Positions 30,489 through 64,000 of a DNA stretch of 64,000 bases are shown piece by piece (the first letter of the stretch is position 1; each line of letters begins with the position of its first letter). The stretch is from Promethearchaeota archaeon (GTDB lineage: Archaea; Asgardarchaeota; Lokiarchaeia; Sigyniarchaeales; SOKP01): assembly GCA_030599585.1 (NCBI GenBank), contig JAUVNS010000002.1, positions 320,001-384,000 on the forward strand, read 5' to 3'. The translations under genes and the position numbers were made by a program. The notes below the pieces were generated by a model. The model made no database searches. It was not told where the DNA came from and worked only from the letters and a program-made list of their open reading frames with translations.

Positions 30489-30551
30489 ATTTTTATCGTA
30501 TAATCCTTAAAAATTTGAGATAAATGTATATGTAATAAATAAATTTCTGGA

Positions 30552-30712
30552 TTATTCAACCATGTCAGGTTCAATAACAACCTTTAGAGACTCAGTAGCC
30601 TAACTAACAATTTTAAATGCATTTCCTACTTGATTTAGAGGAAATCGATGAGAATTTAAGTCGGTTATGTTAATTATTTTAGAAAATATCCACACATATG
30701 ACTCTTGGAGAT
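30552..30712 (-). pseudogene. Duplicated 3' fragment (~52 codons) of the Zn-dehydrogenase gene with an internal stop
   Basis: Translates as LQESYVWIFSKIINITDLNSHRFPLNQVGNAFKIVS*ATESLKVVIEPDMVE*; colinear with 31355-31515 at an 803-nt offset. Confidence 0.92.
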
Positions 30713-30857
30713 TTTTAGAAGTTATAAATTTAATTTCTTTTTCTATTTATCCTTTCATTTCATATTAAACCGAGTATCATTAAAAGTTCAACCTTTATAT
30801 AAAAGGAAACATAAATAATCAAGATTTTACAATTTTGTAAAAAATAGTGAAGAAAAG

Positions 30858-36133: not shown

Positions 36134-36234
36134 GGCTCGGTACGGGAATCGAACCCGTCTCTAGGGATTCACAGTCCCCAATACTATCCATTTTACGGAG
36201 CTAGCTTTCTAAACCCCTCTATACAAACCGAGCC
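36134..36234 (-). tRNA. trnH: tRNA-His (GUG) with encoded G-1 and a 28-nt D-loop intron; CCA not encoded
   Basis: G-1, acceptor GCTCGGT/ACCGAGC, discriminator C; anticodon arm GGGGA-CTGTGAA-TCCCT (GTG at 36170-36172); T-arm ACGGG-TTCGATT-CCCGT; the D-arm becomes GTAT-AGTGGATA-GTAT after removing 36191-36218. Confidence 0.93.
36191..36218 (-). other. tRNA intron at non-canonical position 15/16 with a relaxed bulge-helix-bulge motif
   Basis: GTAT-AG^A-GGGGT...GCTCC-GTAA-AA^T; the intron folds as a hairpin. Confidence 0.82.
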
Positions 36235-36337: not shown

Positions 36338-37198
36338 TCATATAATAGTAATAGAATCTTTTATTAAAGCGTCTGGAATTGATATTAAAGGGTTTCCTTT
36401 TAATTGTAATTGATTTAATAATTTTAACTCGACGATAGAGCTTGGTAATTCTTTTAACTTATTCCCCCCCAATTTCAGAGTACCCAACGATTTCATCTTT
36501 CCAATTGTGGTGGGTAATTGTTCCAAACAATTATTTGATAAGCAAAAGTAGCTCAAGTTTTTGAGATTTCCAACCGACTCAGGTATTGATTTCAACCGAT
36601 TGTTTCTTAGTGTTGTTTCAGTTAAACCCTCGAGCCTGCCGAAACCTTCAGGCAGTTTTTCCAACTTATTGTTCTTCAAGTAAAAGGTTTTTAGAGATTT
36701 TAGTTCCCCTATTGCCTCAGGTAGCGCTTTAAGACGATTACTGGACAAAGCTAAATGGTGAAGATTTATTAAACATCCAACTGAACTCGGTATTGAAACG
36801 ATGTTGTTTTCGGCCAAATTTAGGCTATGCAGTGAGGTGACTTTTGTTAGAGGTTCAGGAAAAACTCTTAACCTGTTACCGGCTATACTGAGAACTTCTA
36901 AGAATTTCAGTTTTTCGATTGCAATGGGGATAATTCCGATTGCATTTCTATCTAAATCTAATTCTCTTAACTTTGAAAACTTCCAAACAACAAGAGGAAT
37001 TGAGGATAACCGACATGATACCAAACTAAGCTCCTTGATATTCCCGCCTTCAATCTCGAGGAAGATGCGACTCGAATTACCGTCTCGCTTTTTTTCGAAA
37101 TTATTGCTTATCAAATTGTCTAATTCCAAAAGGTCATAGTATTCTTGCGAACTTAACCGCTCTTTACCCTCAAAATCTAAATCTCTTATGTTTTTCAT
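36338..37198 (-). CDS. Leucine-rich repeat protein (about 9-10 x 23-aa LRR)
   Basis: Repeats of LxxLxLxxNxLxxLPxxIGxL. Confidence 0.93.
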   Translation of the reverse strand: MKNIRDLDFEGKERLSSQEYYDLLELDNLISNNFEKKRDGNSSRIFLEIEGGNIKELSLVSCRLSSIPLVVWKFSKLRELDLDRNAIGIIPIAIEKLKFLEVLSIAGNRLRVFPEPLTKVTSLHSLNLAENNIVSIPSSVGCLINLHHLALSSNRLKALPEAIGELKSLKTFYLKNNKLEKLPEGFGRLEGLTETTLRNNRLKSIPESVGNLKNLSYFCLSNNCLEQLPTTIGKMKSLGTLKLGGNKLKELPSSIVELKLLNQLQLKGNPLISIPDALIKDSITII

Positions 37199-37276
37199 AG
37201 GTAAATAAAAAAAAGTAATTTATGATAATTTAATTATAGCTGTGCCAAAATTTAATAATTTGCGATTTTGGTGTTT

Positions 37277-40200
37277 TCACATCAAACCTCGACTTTCTAA
37301 TTTTTGTCTTATGTCTTTTATGATGGAAGTGACCCAGTCTTCTGTAATCCATTTCTTATCGATCATCTGTTGAATAGTGTAAGTCTCCCCTCCATGGTTC
37401 ATCTTAAGAAAATCTACCTTTGAAGTATCGACTACCCACTTCCCGTTCTCAAACACATATCTATTAGGGCCTTTATAGGAATATGCTATTCTGTCGTTAT
37501 TTTCCCATTCGTTGACAAATTCTATAAGGCGTTCTATATAGAGATCTTGAGCGGATTGTTCCCAGTACGATGGCGGCCTTGCAGCTTGGAAATCATTGCG
37601 CATCATACGCATTCGAGAATAATAATCTAGATTTTTCCTCGGTTCCAAGCTTGTGAATTTGTAATGCAAATCCCCCATCATAATAAGATCCATTACGTCG
37701 TTTACCGTTTTATCGAAGTCAATGTGATGTCTAAATTTATTATTTTCGACATCATAGTTTTGGATTCCCTCTCCACGCCGCCCAGCTGGTAATAAACCTC
37801 CTTGATAAAGGAGTAATTCAACCCAATGCTTAGCTATAGTTGCTACTTTATAAAAATCGTCATGATAATCAACTTTTGTAGAATCAAGCAATTTTGGTTC
37901 ATATCTAAGGTAAATATCATGAACCCCAGGATAATTTCTTTGATTGTCGGCATAAAAATCTCTAAAAGTTTTTTGCATAAGTATAGCTTGACCTTTCCTA
38001 ATAGATTTGCTCAAGTCTGATACGAAATCTTCGAGGTTGTTAACTACACCCATATTATTTATATTCTTAACTTGTCCAGAAAGATATGAACTAGTTGTAG
38101 ACGCTACCGTTCCTAATCCAATTCTATTATTGATCTCTGATACATCTAAGTATATCGATCCATGATATATATCAGATAGATGCCAACTAGCAAGCAACAT
38201 TACTTTTTGAAGAGGTTTGACTTCTTCATTAACAAGAAAACTGTTAGAAGCGCAGTATCTATTAATGGCTAATAAGGCTTCTTGAACTGATCTAGCTACT
38301 AACTTAGATTCTATACTATCTGAAATCCTAGATTCGCCCAAATTCTCTAACATAAATTCAGCAGACGATTTCCTGTATAAACCGTAAATCATTCTGAGTA
38401 AATGTTCGGTTTTGACTACGCGCCCTAGTACTTGGGATCTTGAAAAAAGTCCGAAAAATTCGTTTAACCTGTTAATCGAAGGCCCGTGACCGTCCCTATT
38501 GGCAGGATCATGCTGGATTGCAAGCCTAAGATCCCCTAATAGTTTATCTACGTCAGGATTTTGATTCTGTAAGCCAATTTGTCTTCTATAATTCATTAAT
38601 AATTCTTTAAATGCTTTCTTTGTTTCCTCTGTAAATTGTGGATCTTGATCTACACTAAATATCCATTTGTAAAGCTGGTTATCAGTCCATAAGATGTTTA
38701 CTCCGTTCTCTAAAGACAAGCGGGTAGTTCTAAATGCATCTCGACGTTGATTCAATGCTATAGCAAGCGGTCGCTCCTCAGTAATGCTTAAAATGTTTTT
38801 AATATCATTGAGTAAGATGTTCGTAGGATGATCTTCCCAATTTTCGTAACTATGGAAGTAATCAATAGTAACAGCCACTTCCGCTACGTAAATTTTACTG
38901 TCGATGTTATGATGGTTTTCTTCTAGCCAATCTGCAAGATTAGTAACGCGGTCTACAGGAATGGAAATGAGTTGAAAATCATCGGAAATTATATACATCT
39001 TATAATTGCCGCTCACACCGAAATAAGTCAAAATCTCGTTTAATTTGTCTAAAGTGCTCATATCTGCTCTAAAAGCGTTCTGAACTAAAGAACGAGAGGC
39101 TTGGCTCTTTTTATGAATTAACACAAAATTGGGATCGTAGAATTCTAATCCGAACATATCTAAGAATCGCAAATTTGTAACCCCTTCTTTAGCAAGTGCG
39201 TCTTTAATGATTTGAATTGTCTCTTTTTCTGCTTTTTGGACTCCAATCTTATTGTAATTTTTCTGGATTTGTCTAAATAGTTCTTTATATCCTCTAAATC
39301 TCTCTTCTTTTAATAGATACTTCTCGATCCATTCGTTAAAATATGGATCAAAGGCAAGTGTGTTAAACTTGTTAGCGAGATTTTCTTTTTGAGTTCTACT
39401 ATCGGGATTAATCTGACGAAGAGCAGTAACCGATGGAATGTTTTCTTTATTGGAGCCTTCTTGCGGTGCCTTAAATAGCTCGTGAAGGGCTTGAGGATCA
39501 ACTTCCGAGGGTTGCTTTGTTTCTTGTCCAAAGTTTATGGTGTCAATATCTCCGACAATACTTATTAGGTTCTTTTTTCTTCTGTTGTGTCGCCACGACT
39601 TGAGATTAGCCATGGAAAGAGGCGACGCTTTTATTGAGCTGCCGACCATTTTCTTCAGACCGGAGAGCGCAGCGAAACTGAAGGTGCCGAAAAAGACGGC
39701 TGGAAGCGTCATAAACAACCCTTTAAGGAAGTTGCTTTCTAACAGCTTGCCCAACGAGCCCTTATTTTCTGCTGCTTCTTGCATTGCTTTCTGTTTTTGT
39801 TCGAAATCGGAGTTTATTTGCTGTTGAATCTCTGTCATTGACTGACCCGAAACGAGACCTTGTATAAGAGTAATTACGCTTTTTGAACTTATTGGAGCGC
39901 CTAGAACTAACTGGCCCATGGCTCCTTTTACTTCTCTGGCGGAGGTTGATAACGAAGACAACCAGAATCCTAAGTCGTCAGAGCCGCCTAATATACTTAC
40001 GACGTTTTCGATTAGTGCTTCTCTAAATCCGTCTTGAATTATTTCTTCGAATACTTCTTGTATTGCACCTTTAACCGCACCTGTAAGACCTCCAAGAAGC
40101 GATTTTGATTGCTTTGCAATAAGCATCGCAACGCCTTTAGCTCCTGCCTCCGACGCTAATTTGCCTACGGCTGCTTGAGCCGCCCAAGAACCAAAATACG

Positions 40201-43200
40201 CTAAGGGAGCGCTTATTAACGTAGACCAGAACGTTAGAGTCTCCGTATAGGAAATCTCTGAAATCATATTAGCACTAATTTCTGCGAATGTATACTGACT
40301 GAAATAGTCCATAATGGTGTAAGAAGTAGCTTGAGCTAAAGCAAGTCGACTGGTTTCGTCGGTGGTGTCGGGAATAAATCTTTCGAATTCGATTCGAATT
40401 TTGTAGAATATAGTCTCATCGACCAATTTGCTAGCCCACGATTGAGCCAAGAAGTCTTCGAATCCTGAATATTTTTCCGAAACGAGCGCTTCTATAGACT
40501 TAGTAAAGTATAGATTACCTCCATCGACCGTGTAGTCAGAATCGTTAACTAGTATGTCTTGAGCAAAATAATCGTTTAGGTGAACTTCTTCTTGAACAAC
40601 GTCGATAAACACGGACGTAATGTTGTATTCGAAACCGTTATCGTTAAGAGGAACTTTCGCTCCATACAGAGCCGATTCTACGTCGTCCATGGCATAAGCG
40701 TTAATCCCAGAAGTCTTATCGTAATCCTTACATCGAACGGTCACAGTAAGTTTTCCTAGCGCAGGTTGGATTTGGTCGAATCGAGCTTGGCTTAGAACCA
40801 CGGGTCGATACAAAATCGATAGCGGTAAGATAGTTTCTTGGATGGTGCTATTGATAAATTCGTAGCTCGGTGCTCCGTCTATGCAATTAGGCTTTATAGC
40901 ATCGAACGATCCTCCTGATTTTTCCATGACGATGGTCTCAAGCGCGCCTAAGGTGTTGAACGAGTGTAAGTTGTAATCGTTAAACAAGAATTCGGTGTTG
41001 TGGTAAGTGTAAAATGGTTTGGTGTTGTAATAAGGGAGCTCGCTTGTCATAAGTAAATAATCTAAATTGATGTCATCGTAATCGAGGGCGGTGTAAGAAT
41101 CAGGATTGGAACCTCCCATGTCCCAAATGTTTTCCCATAATAAATCTAAAAATCCTCCAAAAGAGTTCCATATTCGAAGTGGATTTGGAGGACTTACTAA
41201 CAACTGCCCGGTATAAGTAGTCCCAGAATCCTTGCCACTCACGGTAGCGTAATATCCTCCTGGATGAGCTAATAGCGCTGCTGCCATCGTGTCTTGAAGA
41301 ACTCTATCAAAAAGATTTTTTTCGTTGAGCGAAACCGGTTCTTGTGGTCCGCTTGAACTTGGGTAAAATGTGTCGGCCCGTTCTATGGATTGTGCCATGT
41401 GAAGTTTTCGATCGATGTTAAATTTTGTCATTAAAGTATATATAACAAGGTAAGTTAGCGTTCCCGCAGCTCGACCCGCAGCCTCTCCCGCTGCAATAGC
41501 TGCAAGAGTTCCTACGCCTAATGTCGCCGCTATACCAGCAGCAGTGACCATCGACGCAACTATAGCTGCTACTACCGCGCTCGCAATAGCCGCAGTTGTT
41601 GTCATAAAGACTTGTTCTATAATATCACCTACTAATTGTTCTCTGTAAGTCTCCCACGCTCTTGCGTAAGATTTGTGTCTAATTTCGTAAAATAACTCGG
41701 TAAATTTAGGGTTTTTTTGGCTCGTTTCAGAAGTTTTGTAAATTTCGAAGATTTGATCTTTTGGTTTGTATTCTTTCCAGAATTTATCGTCTTCGTTTAA
41801 AATATCGAATAACAAATCGTTATTTTTTAAATTGTCGAAGTTATAAATCCAATCAGAACCAAACATTTCAGTCTTTCTTCCGAGGTTGCTAAAATCGGTA
41901 ATTGTGTTTTCTACTTGATCTAACTTTTCGTAGGGAGCAAAATCGTGTATGCCGTCGTAGTTCATTCCTATCGATATTACGTCGTATTTAGGAATTACTA
42001 ATCTGCTTACCGTGTATAAGTTGCCAACTATGTACACTGTCTCGTAATAACCGTTAAGATCTGAATCTATGAAAAAGTAGCTACCTGAAGTTTTAGCAGA
42101 TCCGTCCAAAAACGCGTCTTTATCAGAAGTGTAATAAACTTGACCGTCTGCCGGAGTGACCATAGCTCCAGTCACCTCAAATTCAACCCAACCGTCGTTC
42201 TCTACGCTAGATTTAGATATTTTACCGAAATCGTTGTATAACGAATACCTATTTGGGATGCGAAGAATAATAGTCTTTTCGAAATAATTTGTGGAATAAG
42301 AAATTTCTCCATCTTCGTCAAATACTTGAAGAGAGTCGTATTTTATTGGAACGTTGTCTGAACTCCAAGTTGGACCCGTCCAAGTGATGTTTGCGGGACT
42401 CGCGTAAGGAAGTTCAGGATCGAAAATTATTTGTGATTGGGCGTTAGTGTCGATGTTAGTGACCGAGTGTTGATTGGAAACATCTTCAAAGAACCCTTCG
42501 ACGCTTTCAACTTCGTTGTTTTTAAAGTCGTCCTTGTAAACCCTTTGTTCTTCAACCTCTCCTTCGTTATAATCAATAAAGGTTAAAGTCGAATATTCAA
42601 CGGTGTCTACGTACGAAGTAGTGACATTTTCAGTAAATTTTCTATAAGTTGTGCTCAAAGTAGGAGCGTTCATGATGGCCCCAAGGTTTGCCGTGCTAAA
42701 ATCGTTAGAATCGAGGTGTTCTTTCGTAAGAAATTCGTTAAATACAAAATCGTCTTTTGATCCAAACAAGGAAGCGGCGCTTTTCATTATATATTCGCCT
42801 AAAAAGATTAATACGTTCTGAAGTTTTGCAGCGAGTATTGTTTCTTTAAATTCCGTTACCTCGTAATATATGCTAACTTCGGTAGTCTCAAAGTTGGTAG
42901 ATTCGTCTACCGTTCCGTCTCGGTCTTCGTCTACTTGCACGCTGTAGAAATTACTTTTAACGTGTTCTTCCTTGTTTATTTGCCTCTGCGTCGATTTCTG
43001 AGCCCAATAGTCAACATCTGGAAGCATCATCTTAGAAAGCGTGTAAAGCATTAACGGTATTATCAAGACTGATAATAATAGTTTGGCCATGTTAGGATCG
43101 TAATTGGCGAAAGTTTGATCGTCTACATCGAACCAATCTGTTCTTAGTTTTTCTTCTAAGTTTTTAGAGGCTTTTATCTCTCGATTCTCGAAATCTTGAA

Positions 43201-46200
43201 TGACCGTATACCAATAAATCTCGCCTGAACCTTCTGGATCGTCTATACCGTATTTAATTATATCTGGAACGCCATCTCCATCAATGTCGATCGTTTGCTT
43301 GTAATCGGATTCTCCGTCCATGTCAATGTCTGCTACATATATTATGGAGGTATCGTCGTAATATACTTCGAAATTATCGAATTTTTCAGATGTGTAACCA
43401 ATAAATTGACTTTCAGAACTAATGTCGGGGTTTCGAGAGAAACTAATTGATTCAAAAGAAGTGCTTTCGCTGGTAATAGTATCAGATCCTTCAGCAAACA
43501 ACGGAACGCCCGATTCAGATCTGAAATTGTAATCAATATCTACCGAACTGTAAAAAGTCTCGGTCTGATCTGATAAGTAGGTTTGGTTAAAATTATCGAG
43601 TAAAAATATTTCGGTATAGGTAGAAATTGGGGCGTACGAATAATTTACTATTGCTGTAATTTGATCAAAAACGTCCAGAAGACCGTCATCCGAGTTCAGA
43701 TCAATAATTGTTAAGTTGTTAGTTGTTTCGTCAAAATTTAGGCTAAAATTGACGTTATTTGTCAACATTTCCGTGTCAAAGGTAGGCGTTAATCCGATCA
43801 CTTGATACAAACTAAGGTTAACAAAGTCGTTTTCGAAAGTAAGGTTGCCAAGGTCAAAAGTATGGGTGTATTCAGAAATTTCGGTGTATACTGAAAAAGT
43901 CTCGTAATAATATTGGACTACTCGATATTCCGATTCTTCTTTAAAAGAGTAAGCGATATTTTCGTAGGAGTGCGATGTGCTAAACTCTGAAAGCCAATCG
44001 TAATGCTCAGGTTTTAATAAGTAGTTGCAATCGTATACCGCCCTAATCGAGTCGAGATCGATGTTTTGCTCGTCAATTCGAATAGATTCGGTCCAAGACG
44101 TGTTTGTAGCGTATTCAAAGAATAGGGTTGAATTAGCCTCGATTATTAAAGGTTCTTCAAATTCCATACCAAAATATTCTGGGTATTGGTTAAACGATGG
44201 GTTCCAGGTAAATGTATTGTTTGAAGGTTCAAAGTGTAATTGGTGATCGTTTCCGGTAATTCCTGCCGAATAATAATTGCCTTCCTTGTCGTATATGGTC
44301 AAATAATCTAACCAAGTACTATCAAGGTAAAACATTGGCAATTTATCGAGAACGAGTTGATAGGAATCGTCTTCAGGATCGGAATCGGATGTAAACATTT
44401 CGTGCTCTGAATATTGCCACACCCGACTATCTACGCTACCAAACGCGTCTGATGCCTCGTACGATTGTTCTAAAAGCACAATTTCGCTTATAGTCAACTC
44501 GTATGTAGGGTTAGGCACAGAAATAACTATATTACTGAAGTCTAACTCGTCAACTCCTTCTGAACTAAATAAGGAAGTTAAGTTAAGCTCTATCTTAACC
44601 GCCTTCACTCTTCCGTTAAATTCGGTATCAAATGGAGTAATTTCTAATGGAACTTGGTAATAATAATCGGCGGTAAATTCGGAATAAGAACCGGTAGAAT
44701 TGGCGTTAATTAACAACAGCTCCGCTTTAGGAAGGTCTGGGTGCGAATCGTAGTTATATCCCTTGCTTTCGAAGTAAGCTTTACCGATACCTACGGCTAT
44801 TCCTCTCTTTACTGGAGAGCTATATTTTAGGACTATCACTTGATCGTCCTTAAAGCTACCCCTTTCGCTGGTATTGTTGTTGAAATAAATCGTCGGAACG
44901 TGTAAAGTGTAAATATCGTTTTCAAATGTATAAGTTATGTTATTTGAGAAAGAAAGAAGTTCCAACATGTCGTTAAATACGTAAGCTAGATGAGTCCCGT
45001 TAACCATAAGGTCACTTTCTAACGCGATGTGCATGTATTCGATTTCATCTTCCATAAAGGATACGAGTTCGCTATCCCATTCAACAGTTTGTATTCTGAT
45101 AATACCTTTAAGGTTGTCTTGAGAGTATTTTTCGTCGCTCCTAAATTCTGGAGTAAATCTTATCGTTTCTAAGGTGTTTGTGCTAGTAGGCAAATCAACT
45201 TTTAGGGTGTAATCTACCATAATTAATTCTTCAGCGGTGATAACTTTTGTTAATTGCGTCATTAAGCCTGAATTATCGAAAAGTTCGATCGTGACGTATT
45301 CTAAACTTTCTATGTTTTTTATATTGGTGTCTAAATACAAAACAAGGTAATCTCCGTTGTGTAGTCCTGTAAGCATATCTTGATCGTAATTCTGCAATTC
45401 TTGAGAAACGTTGAATTCTAATTGATCTCCTTCTTTAAGATAGGCAGCAACTTGAGACGCTTGACAAACTATGTTCTGCAAGGTAGATTTGTTCTCGTTC
45501 ATGAAGTATGGAGCGTCTAAGTTAGGTATCACGCTAAAATTTTGTGCGTTTATAATGTTCCAACTTGTTACGTTTAATGTTGATGTAATTCCTTCCGTGG
45601 GATCGTACGAGAATTGGTAACTATTTAGTTCTTTATCGATATTATTTGATATAAACGATACGAAGAATTCTTTGTTCGCCCGAATTGAAGATACCAAACT
45701 GTTTTCATCGTTTTTGATGGTTATTTTTCTAGAGTCAACATCTACTGAATAGTGAATAGAATCTAAGAATATCATCTTGCCTCTTGCGTTGAAATAAAAC
45801 ACGCTTATCGCCTCCTCTCCTTCAGCTTCGATAATATCGACGTAATTATCTAATTCTGGGCTCATCATATCGTATACATATCCTGAAACGGAACTATCAA
45901 AAAATTCAGAGCTTATCTCGAATCTCTCTTCGTAGTAATCTCTGCTATTTAGCCGATAACTTAAGTATAAGTTGTATATGTTGTCGATCGAAAGGCTGTA
46001 TTCGAAAGGTGTAATTATGGAACCTCCGCTTAATTTTCGGTATTTTTCCCGATAAGTGTTTAACGAGTCTAAAGTCGTCTCAAATAGGTTTGTCCACGGA
46101 TAAGTAACCATTATGAAGTGTTTGCGATCGATTAACCCTGGTTGAAGTTTATATTTGTATTTTAACTCAACATTTGTGTTAGGTTCGATATAACCCGATT

Positions 46201-49200
46201 CTTGCTCGCTTTTATTTTGGAAGTACGCGTAGTTATTTTCGATTTTTAACACGTAATCGTTAAATAAAGATTCGTTCGAATAGGCTACAAATTGATCGTC
46301 AACAAACAGAGCTAGCTCGTAAGCGTCGTTATCTACTCCTAAATACTCGTAATTGAACGGTGTATGGCTCATCTGATATCGTAACGAGGAGGAGTTGTAT
46401 TTGGCAAGCACATAAATGAATGAATTTTCCACGAGCGAATAACCTGAGTAGTATGTCTGGATATAAGTATCTATTTCTGTAAAGTCTATCGTGTAATTAA
46501 ACGAGTTAGGAGCTTCTTGGGAAAGATAACTGCCTGGAAGGGTGTTGTAAATTGTTACAACGGTCATCGTCTCTTCGTCCGTACCCATCTGCATAAGGGC
46601 GTTGATCTCTTTAAATACAATGTAATCTTCTGCGTATTGGTCGTTAGGAACGATATATTGCGTTCTGATGGTGTCGGTGGTATCGTCTCCCGTGTAAAGA
46701 ACTGAAATGTTGTAATATTCGTACGGTCTGAACGTAAACGAGTCTTGCCCGTCTTCTATATAGTCTTGGTTAAAAATTTCCCATTCTAAACCGTAATATT
46801 CCATAGTAAAGGTAGTATCGATTGAGAAGTCGGGGTGAAGTCGATACGTATCTAAGTCGGTAAATCCGAAATCCCACTCGATCTGAGAGTTATAAGGATT
46901 GTCGGGGTTTTCGTGAATAACGTAATCGTAACCAAGCGTAAATTCGGTATCTACCCAATAATCTACCATGATTTTGTTTTCTGCGTCGGTAAAAGTTTCA
47001 AAATCTCCGGCAGGTTTGAAGAACAAAATATAGGCAGTGTAATTTTCGTTGTATTCCAGAGCAAAATCTTCCCCTACCTTAAGTCTTAACTGAGTTGGCG
47101 ATGGGGCGTACGCACCGCTGGAATCGGTTTTAATATCGCAATAATCGTTTTTGTAAGAGCCAATTGGGAACCCTTGAGCTGATAACGCGTATGAGTAAGG
47201 CATACCAACGGTTTTTATTTCGCTTATATCTATGTCTTCTGGGAGTTGCAATCCGAAATATATATATTCGTCATAATCCGAAAACATGGTATTCATCGTA
47301 ACTGAATTGTTCACATCGGTATCTAAATCGAATACTTGGTGGTAAAATACTTCTCCTGATACGTAAATTTCTTGGGTGGTTAAAAATTGGCTGGTAAAAT
47401 CGAAAGTGTTTTTCCACGAAGTAGGGACTTTAGGAGTTGTGCCAGAAATTTCTGAATAGTAGTTATTAACCGCACTACCAGCGTAATCCATGGCAATATC
47501 TACGTTATAATACTCTTCACCGTCGATTTGTGTTCCCGAACCGTAATACAAGTCGAGATATCCGTCTTGATACAAAGGTTCTTCGATATCATAGGCGTCT
47601 ACAAACATGCCTAGGTTTGGAATTCTATAATAATTCTCTGCCGATACGTCTAAAGTTATCGAATCTCCCAAATAGGTAAAGGAATAATCGTTTCCCGTCC
47701 CTTTGCCTAAAGACACTAAAGTTGCGTTTGGAAGGTCTTTTAGCGCGACAGTAATCTGCGAGCCTTCTATGAGACTAAACGGTTCTTCAAGCAAGTGAGT
47801 CGTAAAGGCTTGGTAATAGTGAGGAGTATTTATTAGGGCGCTCATGTCAGTCTCGCCGTATTTATCCAAAGGAGCGCGATCGTACATCTCTACAATATGT
47901 TCATCGGATAAGTAGTCAAACTGTTCCAAAATCAAATATGGTATGTAATTATCGCTACTTCCTGCTTGTTTAAAGGAAATTTCGATGTCTACGCTATCTG
48001 ATCCAACTGCGTCGTAAATAGCTTGTAAATCTTTCGAGTATGATATTGTATAAACTCCGTCGACGACATCTAAGAGAATTTCGGAATAATCCAAAGGAAT
48101 TACGATTGGATCGGAATAAAATTCGTAATATCCGTCGTTAGTAATGTAAGTAAATTCTATCGTTAAGTTGTTGAAATCGGTGTTAAACTCGTCTATTACG
48201 TCCAAAAGAATTTCGTCAAATTTCATGGTTAAGTTTATCTCAGGAGCAAATAATAAGGGAACGTTGTGCAATTTAATAGTGGTTTCTTCCTCGGAATCGT
48301 CTAACGATATATATAGTGAAGATTCGTCAAGTAAGTACGCGTCTAATTGATTATCGAGGTTGTCAAGTATTACGGGAGAACTCTCTTGGTTGTGCATTAA
48401 TCTTACTGAGTCGCTATATGTCTCTTCTACTTTTTGGAATCCGTAGGAAAGCGCGTATTGCGATTTTACACCGTACGATACGTTTATTATTTCTTGATCT
48501 AATGGTGCCGTGGTAAAAGTAATTGTTGGGTGATTGGCCGAAACTCCTTCAGAATAGGTGCCGAATTCGGCTAATAATTCTTGACTATTGTATATAACAA
48601 AATTGCCGTCCCATGCTATAACACCGTCTAACCCATAATTTAAAGTAAAAGTTTGCTGAGACCCAGTTCCTACATAGGAATCAGAAAATTTGGTAAACAA
48701 TGGAGATCGCGAATTATCGCTCTCTGGTAGAAATTCTGAAGGTAACTGAAGTTCGATCGAGCTTTCGTTGTAATTATTAGTATATCCTAACGAAATTTGT
48801 CCGTAATTATTTGACCCGTAATCTAATTTTAATGTGTAGATTACAGAAAATTCGGTTCCTTCGTCTGGCCTATTGGTTCCAACGAATTCTATTACTGAAG
48901 CGTTATATAACACCGAAGTTGGATAGTAAGGCGTGGTCCAATCAACCCCGTATTCAAATTCGAACTCTGAACCGTCTTTTATACCAAAAATTTTCTTAGC
49001 TGCGACATCGGTAAGAGCTACCAAATCAAGAAGTTCGCTATCTTCGTCAATTCCATATTCCAAAGTTTCGTTATAGAATAAGAACGCTATTTCCTGTCCG
49101 AATGACTCTCCGCCCATGATGCCACCTAAATACACTATGCCTGTATCTGTGTTGATAGTGTTTTCGATTGTTTTTACCGTAATTTTACTGGAACTAAATT

Positions 49201-61200: not shown

Positions 61201-64000
61201 TATATTCGAGGTCATCGTATCCAGAAATGTCCCAATCTGCGGATCCTACGTACCCAGGACCCCATTCCCAACCCCCGGTTGTTGTAGTTGCTATCGAGGT
61301 AATCCTCGATGGGTTAATGTATTCGTCTATTCCCGTAGTAGCGGCGTCGTAAAAACTATTATTGTTTTCGTATAACCTTGTGAAAGGATTAGGGGCGTAG
61401 ATATTGGTACCATCTATTCCAGTTACCGCGGTAAATTCTGGTATCTTGGAAACGCCGTTTGCAATAAAACCAGTTTCGTTAAATAAATAATCGCCTAAGT
61501 TGTCGGAACTATCGATAGAATAAGTAGGGTTAAAATTGTAAGTAATTATGTTATTTTGCTGCATATCGTCGTTAAAACTGTAAATAACATCAATGTCGGC
61601 GGAAATATGGGCGAACGAATTTTCAGGAGTAATTACGCTATCTTGAAGGTCTAAATCGAGAGTTGCAACGTGAGTTTCTTTCTCCTTGTAGCTTAGAAGC
61701 AAAGATTTGTATTTTTCGAAATCTTGTTGGTCAACAATCCTTTTGTAATATTGCGATTCGAGATATTTAACGATTATTCCATCCGTCTCTGAAGCAAAAC
61801 GCGATTCAATTCTTGGTTTCGTTGTTGGTTCGGTATCGATAATGTTAAGTAGATCGGTTGGATTGTCGTTGATAAACCCACTCCATTTTTGTAGAGCACT
61901 ATCGTAATAAATCGAAACTACGTTGTCGAAACCAGTTGGCGCAAGGTCGCCGCTTGCTATAGTAAGAGACACGTCGTCGTTTACCGCCACAGTAACTTCT
62001 CCCGACCCCGGACCCACTTTCTCGAAAGTGAAAGCAGCTCGATACAGGTCGTGTTCGACGTTCCATTTCTTTAAAGTGATTAAGCACAATTTATCTATGT
62101 GAACGGTAAAAGCACTGGCAGTTTCAATGTTAATTCTAAACAAGAAAGGATTAATTCCACTTGTATAGTTGAATTCGTACAATTGACTTTCTGGAATAGT
62201 AAAAACAATATCGCCGTCTTTAATGGCGTGAGTAATAGTTTCGTATTGTTTCGTGTTCCAATTTTTTAATCTAAACACTGCTCCTTCCAACGAAGCGCCG
62301 GTAGCGAAACCCGTTAAGCGAATTTCTACATCAGTTACTTCTTCCATATCGGTTTCGTCAAGTTCGAATTCGAAATTAATAGTGTAAGCGTTATTAATAT
62401 CAGAACTAACGTTGTAAAATTGACCGTCTTTAGCGTGAGCGTAACTAGCGGATGATGGAGGAATAACCTTACTACCGTCTATTATATAGGGTTTATTTAT
62501 TCCCTCAGTAAATTCGTGTTCGGACACTTTTGTGTCGATAATGCTCGCCCCTTCCATTACAGTAATAAAATTTGCCATAAAATATTGGCCGTCAGTTAAG
62601 TTTCCTGAAAACTCTAACTGATCGAATTGTAAAGTCTCTGACGGTTCTAAAGTTAAAATTTGAGTGCTAAAATCGGTATTTCCTTGAGGAACCACGTTAA
62701 ACGAGTGTTGAGCTTGTCCGTCGCTGTATAGCGTTAAGTTAATCTCGTTTCCCGTTTTTGCTTTAAATTCGATTATTATTTGATCGTTAGGGGTAACCGT
62801 TATATTGTTGGCGTAAGAATTACTTTTCAAGCTAAGGCTTTCGGGATCGATGTTATCCGTTTGCATGTATAACATTCCACCCTCTTGGTATTTCTTAGTT
62901 GCTTGATATTTAACAAATGAATCGTAAAAATTAACATATCCGCTTGGAGACACTAAGTCAAAATATTGACCTAGAGAGTCTAGATTTCCCAACTCAAAAA
63001 GTATTTGGGTGGGACCAGAAATAGTGCCAATTGGTTTTAGAGAAACGAATTCGATAGGTGAAGGTCTATTGCTGTTCCAAGTGATCGTCTCTTCGTCAAA
63101 ACTTCCGGTTGTATAGACTTGCACGTTTGGACTAAGGTAGGCGTTTTCTGAGGTTACTTCGTAATAGCTCTTGTCGTCTGGTCCTAAACCTAGGTATTCG
63201 AAAGGTTCAATTTCAATATAAGTCTCGTATTGTTCAGGCACGTTAAAACCTTCTATCCAATCTACTTTAAGGTTGTGGCTAACAAAACTAGCAGTTAACA
63301 CTTTAATTTCGATAGTGTCCGATCTTTCTACGCGTACTGATCCCGATAGAGAATTTTCGCTACCAGAAGCTATTATAACGCCGTTATATTCTATAGCTAA
63401 ATATTCTATGTCTTCGTCGGTAGATATATCGAAATAAATATCAACAAGATTGCCGTAAGGGAAGATTGGGGTGCTCCCTAACCTCTGATAACTAACTTCA
63501 ACTTCGTCTAGCGGTCCATTAGGTATAGAATGGGTGATGTGATATTGACCGTTGTCTGTCTTCGTATCCCAGACATCGCCTCCATTTGCATAACCCTTAT
63601 TTATAACACAAGACATGGCACACGTTCCGTAAGAATCTAACCAATTATAAACCGAAAGGTCGTCCCCGTTAAAATTTGTGTTCGGATAAAGCGAGCGAAC
63701 TACTGTTTCTTGGATTGGGTTTTTAGAGATATAAATAGTATCTTGAGCAGTTCCGAACAAGTCCCAAGGAGTGGTTTGGAAGTTATCTCTAAACTTGATG
63801 GTTTTAGGTGATTCTATAAGGTTAAACCCGCTATAACCGTAAAGTTCAACTCCGTCTTGAGTAAAATCGATTTTATCGCTAATGTGCTCCCCTCCTATGG
63901 CGTTTGATTCGAAATCGTCGTAATTTAAATAATCAGTACTCGTTAATGCAAAAGTGTTGAAGTTTGAAACGCATAAAAATGGTTTTGTACCTGAGTCTTG
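37277..64000 (-). CDS. Giant (>8,900 aa) acidic surface/secreted multidomain protein with late hydrophobic segments and a C-terminal HNH-like region; 5'-truncated by the window
   Basis: 8,827-aa ORF in the track; 80 further sense codons from 63761 to 64000 have no stop, so the real start lies outside the window. D/E/Y/N/S/T-rich with many N-x-S/T sequons. Confidence 0.93.
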   Translation of the reverse strand, partial: QDSGTKPFLCVSNFNTFALTSTDYLNYDDFESNAIGGEHISDKIDFTQDGVELYGYSGFNLIESPKTIKFRDNFQTTPWDLFGTAQDTIYISKNPIQETVVRSLYPNTNFNGDDLSVYNWLDSYGTCAMSCVINKGYANGGDVWDTKTDNGQYHITHSIPNGPLDEVEVSYQRLGSTPIFPYGNLVDIYFDISTDEDIEYLAIEYNGVIIASGSENSLSGSVRVERSDTIEIKVLTASFVSHNLKVDWIEGFNVPEQYETYIEIEPFEYLGLGPDDKSYYEVTSENAYLSPNVQVYTTGSFDEETITWNSNRPSPIEFVSLKPIGTISGPTQILFELGNLDSLGQYFDLVSPSGYVNFYDSFVKYQATKKYQEGGMLYMQTDNIDPESLSLKSNSYANNITVTPNDQIIIEFKAKTGNEINLTLYSDGQAQHSFNVVPQGNTDFSTQILTLEPSETLQFDQLEFSGNLTDGQYFMANFITVMEGASIIDTKVSEHEFTEGINKPYIIDGSKVIPPSSASYAHAKDGQFYNVSSDINNAYTINFEFELDETDMEEVTDVEIRLTGFATGASLEGAVFRLKNWNTKQYETITHAIKDGDIVFTIPESQLYEFNYTSGINPFLFRINIETASAFTVHIDKLCLITLKKWNVEHDLYRAAFTFEKVGPGSGEVTVAVNDDVSLTIASGDLAPTGFDNVVSIYYDSALQKWSGFINDNPTDLLNIIDTEPTTKPRIESRFASETDGIIVKYLESQYYKRIVDQQDFEKYKSLLLSYKEKETHVATLDLDLQDSVITPENSFAHISADIDVIYSFNDDMQQNNIITYNFNPTYSIDSSDNLGDYLFNETGFIANGVSKIPEFTAVTGIDGTNIYAPNPFTRLYENNNSFYDAATTGIDEYINPSRITSIATTTTGGWEWGPGYVGSADWDISGYDDLEYRWMEAVGFETVTIYDEYEFTDLPSWASEADTKKLHINPWWWGDDAAYCKLFFWNPSIGSSGDYESQETFDFEYEGTYYPMVFDIANQHISNGEVKFMIVVYGEYYGMIPTPVSSLGIDYCFLELQEQDLLQSEVSFNFGSLLDGTNDFYLDFSGKTGVSTWTSHLLVDDPVENILDFAFDNSEDTLTGKFISNVQDITVYITNQDEEFAPGRRVDLDWLRLKRVDQGIDISVDNKDSASITSSHSRTHTTSSPVDSGMYDDPYFGKNSLKFTIKNSLTTPKFGRSDGSAYLDSSLSDMNLEFTVYPDNSYGNFPLAYGNVEGNDESLYHANLLSNYANYSTNRFKNSAMDDIQIPLMTPIELDFGSVDLEDLQDMDLEIALGLTYNRNNAASDFVWSLRFRLMYYNYSSGVWEDFKGLLRAKNNIGLERSVWDPSYNFVDYLQNPNSMNFIPVMDENNLIIKNPILIDSVTNNTISEGVMKLALVSYVIPSNFSIEEELAQTFFNYERADPQIPIEISQQVEVLECLFIGETVEIMYPDSAVKTTLGLDQNFRADLSLINNLGDITALKGKYIDRDNVIYEYSVFSYWITSDDKLAFNSPMKYLFTSVEIEYIPEIQLVLNNGKYYLPNSSLAGGYNFSKPFLVTNLKDNNKTWGTYIHPDVDVGFYLDIDQYGMFVVNSSNFDGIPRGSVRFAKRNDTYFYQFSLADELIYKYNILDDASDLVGGTLQIELNAGFSDVVYSELSQVTCSDYNLVVELHQLDTATDISKKIGTAIISLDQDLLYYHYYQTDIDLENFDYETNGRNTLAETIARGSNYDLYVTINSTISNCFVDGNLFKGLYAHELLSADLKIDARDAELKFNNEEVDTPFVEIPQNSVILRKIDDINYAFDQNSLKYGFEFTINELRTETAIIYENSYDFSFESLALVLEGSYSDYSGLLFADITYKAFEWDKDYISTLEPITLTFTNDYTENITKFLELIVQFDSIPGYDMEKISETSGRLVLSEEEKDASLLNVYMFNFIEDKWDQVDFVTYDDYSGTNTFSYVVDRNFITFENYFNDTISGQFEAKIIFTIEEEVGDCFVSKLGFDITEINASIYYSTPNTEHKINPEVTFDVDLSEYFADPSVYLEEITLDLNFEGEIEFDDAFIFSQYALLEENYNFYARNEYLEWELIELEDNSVTLSRAEIDRLLYFDLENDKYFVRAKVEFDWNCIIEMNLGSNSKLEILAVLNLINYDLSASYTSYEVKRISASEPEVPFELTAIYAPNYVNSSSGLTVLDDDEILDIGIFRGFLRNADTRQRLMLRQNLYYNFTDSQAGNFDILLDQEYTDAILRFVSPLGWMTYPYDFSDGSYYGQNTTAPDQPQDFAFDQEDLKEFDGNYSTVQSSISNYNYYNEDTAPQSGDFNPSVNYGDLLNLGSGYTSISSSITSTTYPAYFNTPDINSFSFTKGGWGTYNEYGLRYDHTVDSEHTTISAGYQATYDGNNYDAPSSGEFDVIQGQLSYGDLLSPDDTNSTISAKNNTVAQGGYKEAPAQWGDFAFSPYGTGITPGDLLVDGGTTVVVSADSYTSYGTETYLGYIKPDGELYGNWNEGDDSADHNLYLDEYPDNNGDGGNIRESATNARDRWSFGDITLPANSIASRLIVYIYCMRETSNEPRTVIKMTSNVGVSGYYGGGNGVYTWESDSTTGLTLSQTSLNNLYIDVIPYYLMPTGDEVWLDIETVYVAVYYKTQTVNYLHDWKVTWDISDVDLDSIDSLIFDYQTSSAILNTLRINSDSGWTTVATNTTTAWVSGSWTLSDTYINANGEVELWFQTSTFTSDFNINIDKLYLSYSNLVPNYDVEVEVTWQVEDLDLYTIDKLYFVHSSPPGDSFYIWKWLDPVWDWEEITTASPFTITPDYIDGDEVKVRYVASSSTDFTLDIDQLCLRYTKTIHNYWVDSIVEWETADAFSMETLYFDHSAPVAVTFEVWDWYESVPRFESKTGSSLDLISSPEYVSVTDGVKVRYITGIQDTPFDLQIDQLRVDYEEQHDWYSVSLEAIWDITSALEITDYDYLTYAHKTTEDILCTLEIWDFNLNDWDPTPVNVSTNSVGFFLQQFDLSNPDYRETGTNNVKVRYTTAELEQTPFDLEIDVLKAEYSTREPLYSVDTEIVWDITDETFYTIQNLLYSHMTTLAVDVDLDIYNFTQPGWHEIESVTNNVGFNAESYPLSDDFINETNHVRIRFQTPEITSEFQLLIDQLTLDYQCEIFEFYVGMNQDFVFVGDNEVTNVSMYYYLEGGSNQYIAEMVQDMFDPTMFEYTWENIKATTGACNGEVIYIVFKPTDILDNTGEVTYELLADFVYPQLNLSVGDGIQNYEIVTADPYTLITLTSDEMFPVVNEYRVIDLTRGIEGPWTQFNSTLITELADFGELPSNFSVEFKVVDPAGNENITSYYNGGYRFILYSKERSVALSDDNIDLNSATLSERTLSFNANFGGASLVDVYINGFLYGTQAVHLGSNNYEFDFGTTNSKDTLLAYSDSLMTDYIYSNLNPLNHISWEVREDDMFGVVKHVLVDSDIVIINPLTLNRTRQLDITLLYERGFGLVDFARMKSAHFVNSTSEEIISLSYGYDFIVDREGIMFFPESSILHDLYADPSEVKNNLIHFEYDASLVGDSLSLIDADGFFINFTMPAVYYDHTTIEKLTINFNDFMGNSFSKVFFDLDLRKYFLDSVKAQYETDVFGLGKMMNIPLYIDINELAFSNLNEKFGLSLLESITFEIKDSPRWPGSFVQEFEEFSVLNLPYQRVGITDLKLYNAISDSILSDDEGFVNSTVRFVAPDYYDCFADTEFMIKRLNIEFTDVKMFANNVYFENESNIEVEFSDDIALHYRWNNSLSQIPLNDIYKLPVSLTNHSSGNLLNFANAYWITKYDRDAESGYLTKFYSSKFSLPNILGEFDFSFGSLGTPLFNITFVEAPMLTINITQETLSNTNPIYLENEQFELEYGDQLVLRGAILDNDEYLVEDEVYSYKYQEALDGETVHRLKVISPFGDSDFIDKDNFSIYYLNDQLEVRCLYTNLNGNYFFNDSILVYGKDPVISYVDNAFILNIYWEEDSTSFIRYDTTLLVSYKVITGKPFSPTSFSSVDAYDNDKQQNLVEVPFARYDMVTESWITEDSFTQNFPINKLLLIEDVTSTGATLYGPTYYEDQEIQTDVIALNSIYVNKSYSDRFVEVDPSEYDPWIINSEGNLVVSGLNYTTSGDVFKVAYIATYPVEITHPLNRPTSSVESIRVINATGDEYVFVEGVDYRLSLDGFKIYFYDLYNTILKDGYFTIYDLFEIKYTAPLTKRVNLAHNLLLLLQDSEGNNVPIDSIPIDNLGFFEYEERLDLNSPLSIPLGGGRRLVHMEIAYLPLNIYNKSSDLLEDVIYDDVDVSKIYNCKESNRWAKPITVITIPDQVKLSMNEDPSQNMFTSQKFYEEREYFYNLNPVEALEKGEEYTRVSIDTFVNENYTYSFKLTNEENKPVKDRVVWLQIGLMSKSKSQFLNDRVRLDDTDLPVYFESLGTEEITSIGPGTGANKMFGKPVAYELDSYNTELNAYGPYVWAYDVTDEFGDVSFEVSFDYDYLKDFTDIFGSIEGINSVEDIVLYVRAFSSNFNWTEFAIDTPELYVCSKDGLIFDGSNIEEDYDFTNLAIQDSTYLEGLIYLHKRPIALGVNDYYSYNLPDTDLTSSYDPITMYLYATEANPIPNALAPSRDLMTKDYTSSELEPTDISIFNDTYAYYAYINFYTPNGTLADSLFMEVEEGFNGAGYITIDNETVVQLLSKLGPGISTIAIYIIESEYYAASPIVSIPLEIRPTNWISFGQKNTIISLVDPFVSAWGSAYNNEVEMPFESNYPHLIGSVWIEPFYNATGAELSVQDYIDISLDCTIYNEDGTTSTFPLVDSIMLRPGNNDGVMTFKESLGPEGHFLMGLQCDLNLSFNIDFNKDVIHEEQRDVIINLLDLRLEANPSTNAPNTTWSIFDNQFSSSKITVKTIENTINTDTGIVYLGGIMGGESFGQEIAFLFYNETLEYGIDEDSELLDLVALTDVAAKKIFGIKDGSEFEFEYGVDWTTPYYPTSVLYNASVIEFVGTNRPDEGTEFSVIYTLKLDYGSNNYGQISLGYTNNYNESSIELQLPSEFLPESDNSRSPLFTKFSDSYVGTGSQQTFTLNYGLDGVIAWDGNFVIYNSQELLAEFGTYSEGVSANHPTITFTTAPLDQEIINVSYGVKSQYALSYGFQKVEETYSDSVRLMHNQESSPVILDNLDNQLDAYLLDESSLYISLDDSEEETTIKLHNVPLLFAPEINLTMKFDEILLDVIDEFNTDFNNLTIEFTYITNDGYYEFYSDPIVIPLDYSEILLDVVDGVYTISYSKDLQAIYDAVGSDSVDIEISFKQAGSSDNYIPYLILEQFDYLSDEHIVEMYDRAPLDKYGETDMSALINTPHYYQAFTTHLLEEPFSLIEGSQITVALKDLPNATLVSLGKGTGNDYSFTYLGDSITLDVSAENYYRIPNLGMFVDAYDIEEPLYQDGYLDLYYGSGTQIDGEEYYNVDIAMDYAGSAVNNYYSEISGTTPKVPTSWKNTFDFTSQFLTTQEIYVSGEVFYHQVFDLDTDVNNSVTMNTMFSDYDEYIYFGLQLPEDIDISEIKTVGMPYSYALSAQGFPIGSYKNDYCDIKTDSSGAYAPSPTQLRLKVGEDFALEYNENYTAYILFFKPAGDFETFTDAENKIMVDYWVDTEFTLGYDYVIHENPDNPYNSQIEWDFGFTDLDTYRLHPDFSIDTTFTMEYYGLEWEIFNQDYIEDGQDSFTFRPYEYYNISVLYTGDDTTDTIRTQYIVPNDQYAEDYIVFKEINALMQMGTDEETMTVVTIYNTLPGSYLSQEAPNSFNYTIDFTEIDTYIQTYYSGYSLVENSFIYVLAKYNSSSLRYQMSHTPFNYEYLGVDNDAYELALFVDDQFVAYSNESLFNDYVLKIENNYAYFQNKSEQESGYIEPNTNVELKYKYKLQPGLIDRKHFIMVTYPWTNLFETTLDSLNTYREKYRKLSGGSIITPFEYSLSIDNIYNLYLSYRLNSRDYYEERFEISSEFFDSSVSGYVYDMMSPELDNYVDIIEAEGEEAISVFYFNARGKMIFLDSIHYSVDVDSRKITIKNDENSLVSSIRANKEFFVSFISNNIDKELNSYQFSYDPTEGITSTLNVTSWNIINAQNFSVIPNLDAPYFMNENKSTLQNIVCQASQVAAYLKEGDQLEFNVSQELQNYDQDMLTGLHNGDYLVLYLDTNIKNIESLEYVTIELFDNSGLMTQLTKVITAEELIMVDYTLKVDLPTSTNTLETIRFTPEFRSDEKYSQDNLKGIIRIQTVEWDSELVSFMEDEIEYMHIALESDLMVNGTHLAYVFNDMLELLSFSNNITYTFENDIYTLHVPTIYFNNNTSERGSFKDDQVIVLKYSSPVKRGIAVGIGKAYFESKGYNYDSHPDLPKAELLLINANSTGSYSEFTADYYYQVPLEITPFDTEFNGRVKAVKIELNLTSLFSSEGVDELDFSNIVISVPNPTYELTISEIVLLEQSYEASDAFGSVDSRVWQYSEHEMFTSDSDPEDDSYQLVLDKLPMFYLDSTWLDYLTIYDKEGNYYSAGITGNDHQLHFEPSNNTFTWNPSFNQYPEYFGMEFEEPLIIEANSTLFFEYATNTSWTESIRIDEQNIDLDSIRAVYDCNYLLKPEHYDWLSEFSTSHSYENIAYSFKEESEYRVVQYYYETFSVYTEISEYTHTFDLGNLTFENDFVNLSLYQVIGLTPTFDTEMLTNNVNFSLNFDETTNNLTIIDLNSDDGLLDVFDQITAIVNYSYAPISTYTEIFLLDNFNQTYLSDQTETFYSSVDIDYNFRSESGVPLFAEGSDTITSESTSFESISFSRNPDISSESQFIGYTSEKFDNFEVYYDDTSIIYVADIDMDGESDYKQTIDIDGDGVPDIIKYGIDDPEGSGEIYWYTVIQDFENREIKASKNLEEKLRTDWFDVDDQTFANYDPNMAKLLLSVLIIPLMLYTLSKMMLPDVDYWAQKSTQRQINKEEHVKSNFYSVQVDEDRDGTVDESTNFETTEVSIYYEVTEFKETILAAKLQNVLIFLGEYIMKSAASLFGSKDDFVFNEFLTKEHLDSNDFSTANLGAIMNAPTLSTTYRKFTENVTTSYVDTVEYSTLTFIDYNEGEVEEQRVYKDDFKNNEVESVEGFFEDVSNQHSVTNIDTNAQSQIIFDPELPYASPANITWTGPTWSSDNVPIKYDSLQVFDEDGEISYSTNYFEKTIILRIPNRYSLYNDFGKISKSSVENDGWVEFEVTGAMVTPADGQVYYTSDKDAFLDGSAKTSGSYFFIDSDLNGYYETVYIVGNLYTVSRLVIPKYDVISIGMNYDGIHDFAPYEKLDQVENTITDFSNLGRKTEMFGSDWIYNFDNLKNNDLLFDILNEDDKFWKEYKPKDQIFEIYKTSETSQKNPKFTELFYEIRHKSYARAWETYREQLVGDIIEQVFMTTTAAIASAVVAAIVASMVTAAGIAATLGVGTLAAIAAGEAAGRAAGTLTYLVIYTLMTKFNIDRKLHMAQSIERADTFYPSSSGPQEPVSLNEKNLFDRVLQDTMAAALLAHPGGYYATVSGKDSGTTYTGQLLVSPPNPLRIWNSFGGFLDLLWENIWDMGGSNPDSYTALDYDDINLDYLLMTSELPYYNTKPFYTYHNTEFLFNDYNLHSFNTLGALETIVMEKSGGSFDAIKPNCIDGAPSYEFINSTIQETILPLSILYRPVVLSQARFDQIQPALGKLTVTVRCKDYDKTSGINAYAMDDVESALYGAKVPLNDNGFEYNITSVFIDVVQEEVHLNDYFAQDILVNDSDYTVDGGNLYFTKSIEALVSEKYSGFEDFLAQSWASKLVDETIFYKIRIEFERFIPDTTDETSRLALAQATSYTIMDYFSQYTFAEISANMISEISYTETLTFWSTLISAPLAYFGSWAAQAAVGKLASEAGAKGVAMLIAKQSKSLLGGLTGAVKGAIQEVFEEIIQDGFREALIENVVSILGGSDDLGFWLSSLSTSAREVKGAMGQLVLGAPISSKSVITLIQGLVSGQSMTEIQQQINSDFEQKQKAMQEAAENKGSLGKLLESNFLKGLFMTLPAVFFGTFSFAALSGLKKMVGSSIKASPLSMANLKSWRHNRRKKNLISIVGDIDTINFGQETKQPSEVDPQALHELFKAPQEGSNKENIPSVTALRQINPDSRTQKENLANKFNTLAFDPYFNEWIEKYLLKEERFRGYKELFRQIQKNYNKIGVQKAEKETIQIIKDALAKEGVTNLRFLDMFGLEFYDPNFVLIHKKSQASRSLVQNAFRADMSTLDKLNEILTYFGVSGNYKMYIISDDFQLISIPVDRVTNLADWLEENHHNIDSKIYVAEVAVTIDYFHSYENWEDHPTNILLNDIKNILSITEERPLAIALNQRRDAFRTTRLSLENGVNILWTDNQLYKWIFSVDQDPQFTEETKKAFKELLMNYRRQIGLQNQNPDVDKLLGDLRLAIQHDPANRDGHGPSINRLNEFFGLFSRSQVLGRVVKTEHLLRMIYGLYRKSSAEFMLENLGESRISDSIESKLVARSVQEALLAINRYCASNSFLVNEEVKPLQKVMLLASWHLSDIYHGSIYLDVSEINNRIGLGTVASTTSSYLSGQVKNINNMGVVNNLEDFVSDLSKSIRKGQAILMQKTFRDFYADNQRNYPGVHDIYLRYEPKLLDSTKVDYHDDFYKVATIAKHWVELLLYQGGLLPAGRRGEGIQNYDVENNKFRHHIDFDKTVNDVMDLIMMGDLHYKFTSLEPRKNLDYYSRMRMMRNDFQAARPPSYWEQSAQDLYIERLIEFVNEWENNDRIAYSYKGPNRYVFENGKWVVDTSKVDFLKMNHGGETYTIQQMIDKKWITEDWVTSIIKDIRQKLESRGLM
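54470..57130 (-). repeat. Protein-level repeat block: five short N-segments, one intact domain, then five ~95-105-aa C-segments
   Basis: N-segments xAP..(G)DF...GDL...D...T.IS; C-segments Y.V.....W.I.....L...H.......IW.W....W...V.VRY......F.L.ID.L...Y. Confidence 0.8.

Follow-up and report, generated by a model that had tools for sequence, protein, structure and literature searches.

Giant proteins with exchangeable, sequon-free tips and tip-coupled LRR partner genes: a candidate polymorphic toxin system in Loki-type Asgard archaea

The window analysed here, a stretch of 64,000 nucleotides, is part of contig C24 in a genome of 4.85 Mb. It holds the end of a giant gene followed by a gene for a soluble LRR protein, and we consider that the two probably form a contact-dependent polymorphic toxin of Loki-type Asgard archaea, acting between cells, with its cognate antidote. 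The first-pass annotation had proposed a polymorphic toxin-immunity system, a proposal that is supported at the level of genomic signatures, namely swapped tips, an HNH-like fold, and an LRR gene coupled to the tip. Judged from sequence, the locus displays every genomically testable trait of such a system, and the giant falls outside the Rhs, CdiA, and RTX families.

Architecture of the giant protein and its tip

The minus-strand ORF at 37277-64000 is open up to the window edge. Its frame goes on outside the window to contig position 398,853, which gives 13,858 codons from stop to stop, and a likely GTG or TTG start at codon 12 or 15 would yield a product of 13,844-13,847 aa (about 13,850). 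The part beyond the window (~14.8 kb) encodes a basic region of ~650 aa and then ~7 transmembrane helices at residues 661-906; the signal peptide that was to be looked for at this N-terminus was not found there. From the N- to the C-terminus, these elements are followed by an acidic body (D+E 13-20%, K+R 2-8%), a cluster of DxDxDG-type motifs, hydrophobic segments, and a near-neutral tip (Table 1). Sequons (N-x-S/T) number 172 in the protein and end at residue 12,770 (window 40,543); the early description of an ORF of more than 26.7 kb with an acidic, sequon-rich body is borne out. All four of the hydrophobic segments in that description were located (43,102-43,007; the long Ala/Gly-rich one at 41,635-41,456; 39,922-39,845; 39,736-39,638). 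So were the DxDxDG motifs, for which Ca binding is putative; one further motif of this type lies at 56,380, and the cluster was also found in paralogues B and C.

Carrier repeats of known toxins were absent, as had been claimed for this scaffold. Self-BLAST detected no internal repeats in the giant, neither motif nor Pfam searches detected an Rhs/YD core or RTX repeats, and Pfam matched no FHA repeats or TPS domain across the whole protein, giving nothing beyond weak Ig-like hints. As for a CdiB-like partner, the 608-aa gene upstream of the giant had no Pfam match. One raw contig spans 34,913-43,642 with zero differences, although the run it comes from may itself be the source of the assembly. 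A second allele in run X1 covers window 43,500-48,000, with a body ~87% identical and nothing matching over the tip and LRR gene.

Table 1. Coordinates of the features of the giant gene and its surroundings in the window
Feature	Position	Strand	Basis or remark
3' two-thirds of the giant gene	37277..64000	-	residues 4,952-13,858 of the stop-to-stop frame
Acidic, sequon-rich body, taken as extracellular	43103..64000	-	composition; no self-BLAST repeats; weak Ig-like Pfam hints
DxDxDG-type motif cluster, putative Ca binding	42914..43330	-	motifs at 43,330, 43,288, 42,931
Ala/Gly/Val-rich hydrophobic segment, 60 aa	41456..41635	-	sequence
Most conserved module of the family, putative membrane insertion	39551..40693	-	small beta domain, helical hairpin, last hydrophobic helix
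Junction motif N-P-x-P ... K-F	39365..39412	-	close relatives switch to unrelated tips nearby
Linker domain, 92 aa, possibly a diverged ubiquitin-like fold	38858..39133	-	common to 10 tails
Middle of the tip, probably DNA-binding	37943..38842	-	similarity to stand-alone twin-HNH protein
HNH-like (beta-beta-alpha-metal) nuclease domain, predicted	37529..37855	-	conserved H, H, K, H, E; model
Soluble LRR protein, 286 aa, candidate cognate immunity protein	36338..37198	-	Pfam LRR_8 E 1.6e-31
tRNA-His(GTG), apparent insert near 5' end, probable element border	36134..36234	-	downstream of LRR gene

The most conserved module of the family contains a helical hairpin of 69 + 49 aa with an Ala/Gly-rich turn and invariant Glu, Asp, and Thr residues. 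The model (pLDDT 76, pTM 0.37) shows a beta domain and an exceptionally long helical hairpin. Comparison with structure databases returned generic hairpins and no specific relative, and Foldseek gave nothing usable; this may be a membrane-insertion module. A decayed 55-aa remnant of it lies within a chemotaxis gene cluster elsewhere in the genome (C8:148,621-148,797).

The 92-aa linker domain of this tip matched the ubiquitin fold weakly (hhalign E 6.5e-4, probability 27.5%, reversed control 0.22), had no Pfam or PDB match, and has no di-glycine. A merged ubiquitin-like profile seeded with this domain was circular and was left out of the evidence. In the linkers of other tails, Pfam identified ubiquitin (3.9e-8) and ThiS (5.8e-4) domains, and the genome's own ubiquitin-like ORF matched several tails, down to 2e-22 (six after iteration); some of these linkers retain the di-glycine end. 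Five more tails are ThiS-like, and at least 11 carry ubiquitin- or ThiS-like linker domains. Proteins with a JAMM motif are present in the genome.

The last 250 aa of the tip were modelled at pLDDT 86. Over model residues 59-167, structural matches were mostly to HNH nucleases, the best being Cap5 (7rwk), with a modest Z of 5.2 (rmsd 2.9, 87 aligned); other matches were IscB, McrA, retron HNH, and Cas9 HNH. Across 31 tip sequences, the conserved positions are a pair of neighbouring His, a Lys, a distal His, and a Glu; the H-H pair and the distal H are kept in at least 90%, and the RHH motif lies 150 aa upstream of the giant's stop (window 37,732). The position of the structural Asn of HNH domains is D or N in this family, and the usual last (i+4) His is absent, its place being variable and the conserved Glu coming after it. 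For this tip, Foldseek and Pfam gave nothing significant. Searches of PDB sequences and of the ESM Atlas yielded nothing usable, with Atlas feature scores below 0.8 and a structure TM below 0.25. Z values of at most 5.2, the null Foldseek and Pfam results, and the atypical residues weigh against the HNH assignment. The structural check of the tail that had been called for nevertheless points to an HNH-like fold.

A stand-alone twin-HNH protein, encoded in another genome ahead of the same tRNA-His, is 48% identical to the middle of the tip. One tip block shares 57-75% identity with stand-alone HNH genes at this tRNA-His, against 15-50% within its own tip family. Since the block is common to stand-alone twin-HNH proteins, the tip is itself a mosaic, and the sharing suggests either local recombination or a selfish endonuclease at tRNA-His. 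Twin-HNH genes that share the block stand directly before tRNA-His at L002:857-5153 and L191:98-1517, and the tRNA of locus L002 has a second insert. At L197:2218-5019, a distant homologue of the HNH tip adjoins a tyrosine integrase and a NikA-like gene, and before it lies a 96-aa ORF whose Gly-rich hydrophobic end resembles the last helix of the giants.

Exchange of tips and coupling of the partner gene

Besides this giant, the genome encodes two other complete ones, of 13,906 and 14,552 codons. Their anchor and body are the same, and their likeness to this giant ends at about residue 13,120. It also encodes a 1,364-codon orphan module (D) that is 68% identical to one giant until the junction and unrelated after it. 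These three paralogues and the orphan share the body, and each displays a different tip. Further relatives belong to MAGs of Promethearchaeota (Loki-type Asgard). The pre-tail region was found in 54 of the 161 genomes of the class, in frames of up to 20,619 aa; by profile search, it occurs in 54 of the 134 genomes of the archaeon's own family (~40%) and in 3 of the 265 phylum-sample genomes outside that family.

From 80 fetched loci and the four of this genome, we obtained 78 complete tails representing ~40 genomes, and the last 350 aa of these tails fell into 37 clusters. The single-linkage clusters T0 and D0 are heterogeneous. Pfam assigned tips of relatives to LAGLIDADG (8.8e-11), GIY-YIG (1.6e-5), and PBECR1 (6.5e-4), and the tip types across the family comprise HNH-like, GIY-YIG, LAGLIDADG, and BECR, along with several HH-motif families. 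Almost all of the loci come from one archaeal family, hence they are not independent. The tips measure 600-1,800 aa, contain DNA-binding modules, and are larger than typical toxin domains; their size and the several homing-endonuclease families among them count against a toxin reading. Two giants were found collapsed, one by a rearrangement that inverted its N-terminal part relative to the C-terminal part (L130), the other by a large deletion joining the two parts (L133).

Variable C-termini on a conserved body, which the first-pass annotation had set as a check, were found: four pairs of pre-tail regions that are 94.5, 91.6, 90.4, and 90.0% identical over ~500 aa share no tip homology. The nearest body to this giant (78.6% identity) bears a different tip and a different partner. 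Quick pre-tail trees with SH-aLRT rejected the three carriers of this tip as one clade (p-AU 5e-6). Within this clade, identity drops off near the junction motif. No fixed DNA attachment site was seen at the junction, and neighbouring blocks and crossover points are nested, a pattern that fits homologous recombination. An Asp-Pro cleavage motif occurs only in part of the clade and was discarded as a universal feature. Many short copies begin abruptly amid housekeeping genes, at varied points. Tips with partners also exist as stand-alone cassettes, both as orphan D and in an array at L052. There (L052:6,862-16,396), a 12,291-aa giant is followed by its partner and by several small tip/partner-like cassettes, and the array includes another orphan module, which has an LRR and a C-terminus of BECR type.

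At 72 of the 78 tails, the next gene lies no more than 130 nt away, and these partners are soluble. The LRR gene of the window is 78 nt downstream of the giant on the same strand. It had been described as an all-LRR, signal-less gene at this distance; the spacing, the LRR_8 match, and the solubility stand, whereas the first ~50 aa proved to be a non-LRR cap. Partners are of the LRR type in 40 of 78 cases, against 24 of 3,253 ORFs of this genome. Among 39 tails having a homologous tail, the partner of that tail was the best of 77 partner matches in 26, while nearest-body pairs bearing other tips have unrelated partners; the genes past the partner vary between loci. The N-terminus of the LRR protein had five strong matches in 161 genomes (E<=7e-31; the next 2.6e-10), and these are the same five loci that top the tip search. 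They occupy at least four chromosomal settings, and in two of them the tip is broken and the LRR gene intact. Three metagenome contigs repeat the pairing of tip and LRR; one lacks it (homologue L196, without the LRR).

By sequence comparison, the partner gene tracks the tip and not the body, with L033/L037 and L046/L054 as exceptions in which homologous tips have differing partners, and the present LRR subfamily pairs one-to-one with the tip family found here. A downstream gene that varies with the tip had been sought from the start and is what we observe. Some points temper the immunity reading. Convergent partners (16 of 78) are unusual for immunity genes and count against it, and because the partner adjoins the tip, linkage alone could produce co-inheritance and part of the coupling pattern. 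The predicted complex of HNH domain and LRR protein scored 0.01, which speaks neither for nor against binding. At L042, the small partner gene after the giant is tandemly duplicated, as two 113-aa copies.

Upstream of the giant are a conserved ~600-aa (608-aa) secreted gene, HTH genes, ParB, and a primase-like gene; no ParA/MinD Walker motif was found upstream, where the contig ends after 10 kb. Giants A and B both sit behind ParB, primase-like, and other element genes, one related element has a tyrosine integrase, and giants end at many different chromosomal sites. General integration at tRNAs was rejected, with one credible case among 78 loci (this one), a count to be read knowing that ARAGORN misses many of these tRNAs. 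An element with primase-like, ParB, and integrase genes and no giant seen lies at L180 (C32:204,286-211,455). Contigs C30 and C39 end in fragments of the 608-aa gene, which suggests that the assembly broke up a fourth element. Elsewhere in the window, a 134-135 aa membrane protein gene is tandemly duplicated at 30,053-31,265 (68% DNA identity), and two long co-oriented ORFs of 880 and 871 aa, each with a 264-268 aa gene before it, lie at 18,163-24,262, with strongly negative AT skew.

Loss of sequons, proposed mechanism, and competing readings

Glycosylation at N-x-S/T has been shown in the Loki-type Promethearchaeum (PMC11284389), and this genome encodes STT3/AglB. Across all tails (80,106 residues), we counted 4 sequons against 572 expected from composition, a ratio of 0.007. 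Reversed and substituted motifs in the same tails gave 0.88-1.02 and the non-glycosylatable N-P-S/T 2.46, and the sequon ratio was 0.92 in cytoplasmic proteins and 0.91 in partner genes. The stand-alone twin-HNH protein has 7 sequons against 9.5 expected. The ~700-aa non-acidic, sequon-free tail reported for this giant was recovered, its last 698 aa being near-neutral with 0 sequons against 5.0 expected; over the last 1,078 aa there are 0 against 8.2 (P 3e-4). The giants' own N-terminal regions carry some sequons. We infer that the tails probably pass the oligosaccharyltransferase under selection to remain free of glycans. The transmembrane anchor and the loss of sequons are indirect signs that the tip may be exported.

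We propose that the C-terminal part would be exported past the oligosaccharyltransferase, leaving a stalk of ~11,000 aa glycosylated and the tip bare. Upon contact, the helical module would insert in the neighbour's membrane and the bare tip would be threaded through, after which the HNH domain would cut the target's DNA. The cytoplasmic LRR protein would bind the tip and shield the producer and its kin. Tips and partners would be swapped jointly by recombination at short shared blocks past the last hydrophobic helix. More speculatively, the target's own machinery might use the ubiquitin-like linkers to pull the tip in or to release it; in that case, other Asgard cells would be the likely targets. 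The full version of this model, in which archaeal toxins of 9,000-20,600 aa combine export by the N-glycosylating route, glycan-free cargo, entry or release via the linkers with help from the target's ubiquitin/AAA machinery, and diversified LRR antidotes, is conceivable but doubtful as a whole.

The loss of sequons bears first on the alternative raised at the outset, a membrane receptor with an effector tail in the producer's cytoplasm. Such a topology would suit a near-neutral tail preceded by several hydrophobic segments; however, a domain that never meets AglB has no evident reason to lose sequons, and the contrast between the tails and the cytoplasmic proteins and partners contradicts this reading, arguing instead for threading across a membrane. 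We hold it to be highly improbable. Nor does a giant adhesin with an extracellular nuclease tip explain why sequons are lost over 80,000 residues of unrelated tips, why the hydrophobic hairpin is conserved, why cytoplasmic-type modules (HTH, ubiquitin-like) are present, or why the LRR gene is kept after the tip decays. These genomes abound in LRR genes (17-24 in this one) and linkage can carry a neighbour along as a passenger, yet this reading is very unlikely. Bareness of the tip does not tell whose membrane is crossed, so a self-directed sensor deserves slightly more weight, though we find it quite unlikely: an outside tip pulled into the producer's own cytoplasm on a trigger such as a virus or predator would cause abortive death, with the LRR protein buffering leakage. 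Against this stand the ~11,000 aa of stalk that precede the tip, the constitutive cognate inhibitor that would blunt suicide, and the continual swapping of tips with matched partners, which is the pattern of inter-cell conflict (PMC3482391).

An effector of a mobile element is the strongest of these competitors, and still an unlikely one. A tip delivered to a neighbour would aid the spread of the element, either through a site-specific cut that favours integration or by killing non-acquirers, the partner would regulate it, and competition would be secondary. The ParB and primase-like genes before giants A and B, the integrase of a related element, the many chromosomal sites at which giants end, the homing-endonuclease families among the tips, and the block closer to stand-alone HNH genes at tRNA-His than to its own family all agree with this. 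Local recombination, however, simply explains the shared block, the BECR RNase and other tips are unfit for DNA homing, and orphan cassettes of tip and partner as well as intact LRR genes behind broken tips fit immunity.

Relation to known systems and implications

Polymorphic toxin systems (CdiA-CT/CdiI, Rhs, MafB, LXG) include HNH-fold, URI (GIY-YIG), and BECR toxins and an Imm-LRR family; they are rare in archaea, where most immunity families are absent, and LRR immunity has found no wide use among toxin types (PMC3482391). Like the bacterial systems (Zhang et al. 2012, PMC3482391), the Asgard family joins a conserved carrier to a variable C-terminal nuclease, with a gene specific to the tip next to it; cassettes that stand alone and exchange through recombination are further common traits. 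The Asgard family differs in its carrier, with a ~7-TM N-terminal anchor and a non-repetitive body of 9,000-20,600 aa, in its sequon-free tips and ubiquitin-like linkers, and in having LRR as the majority partner. It also has LAGLIDADG tips, a term that does not occur in the searched text of PMC3482391. No description of a toxin scaffold of this kind was found in the open-access literature searched.

With the aloposons, Asgard mobile elements described from Heimdallarchaeum (Wu et al. 2022, PMC8813620), the locus shares a giant gene, an upstream partition-type gene, and a downstream tRNA; no toxin role was proposed for them (PMC8813620). Aloposons, however, have tandem genes of 3,000-6,000 aa (PMC8813620) and an upstream four-gene set with a MinD/ParA ATPase; here, a single gene of 13.8k aa follows ParB, no ParA Walker motif was found in the 10 kb before the contig ends, and a tRNA was seen behind only this locus of 78. 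The VARTIG module of Thermococcales (Makarova et al. 2021, PMC8416519) likewise joins a large surface protein with a recombining C-terminus to variable downstream genes, and has been compared with polymorphic toxins (PMC8416519); its variable end is an Ig domain, whereas in the Asgard giants a hydrophobic hairpin precedes a tip of nuclease type. West-Roberts et al. (10.1101/2023.11.21.568195), on giants of Omnitrophota and others, note that among archaea it is in Asgard that genes longer than 10,000 aa occur most often; the passages found give no function or swappable tip for the Asgard ones. A haloarchaeal contractile injection system (PMC11566945) is a case of archaeal contact-dependent antagonism, with the unrelated architecture of a phage-tail-like multi-protein machine.

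The presence of this module in ~40% of one Asgard family (54/134) offers a testable function for unexplained Asgard giant proteins, and tip and partner are small enough for ordinary hosts. Sequon-free cargo provides a sequence signature for translocated domains in any glycosylating archaeon. If the toxin and antidote reading is true, it would mean that kin discrimination by LRR proteins takes place in prokaryotic relatives of eukaryotes.
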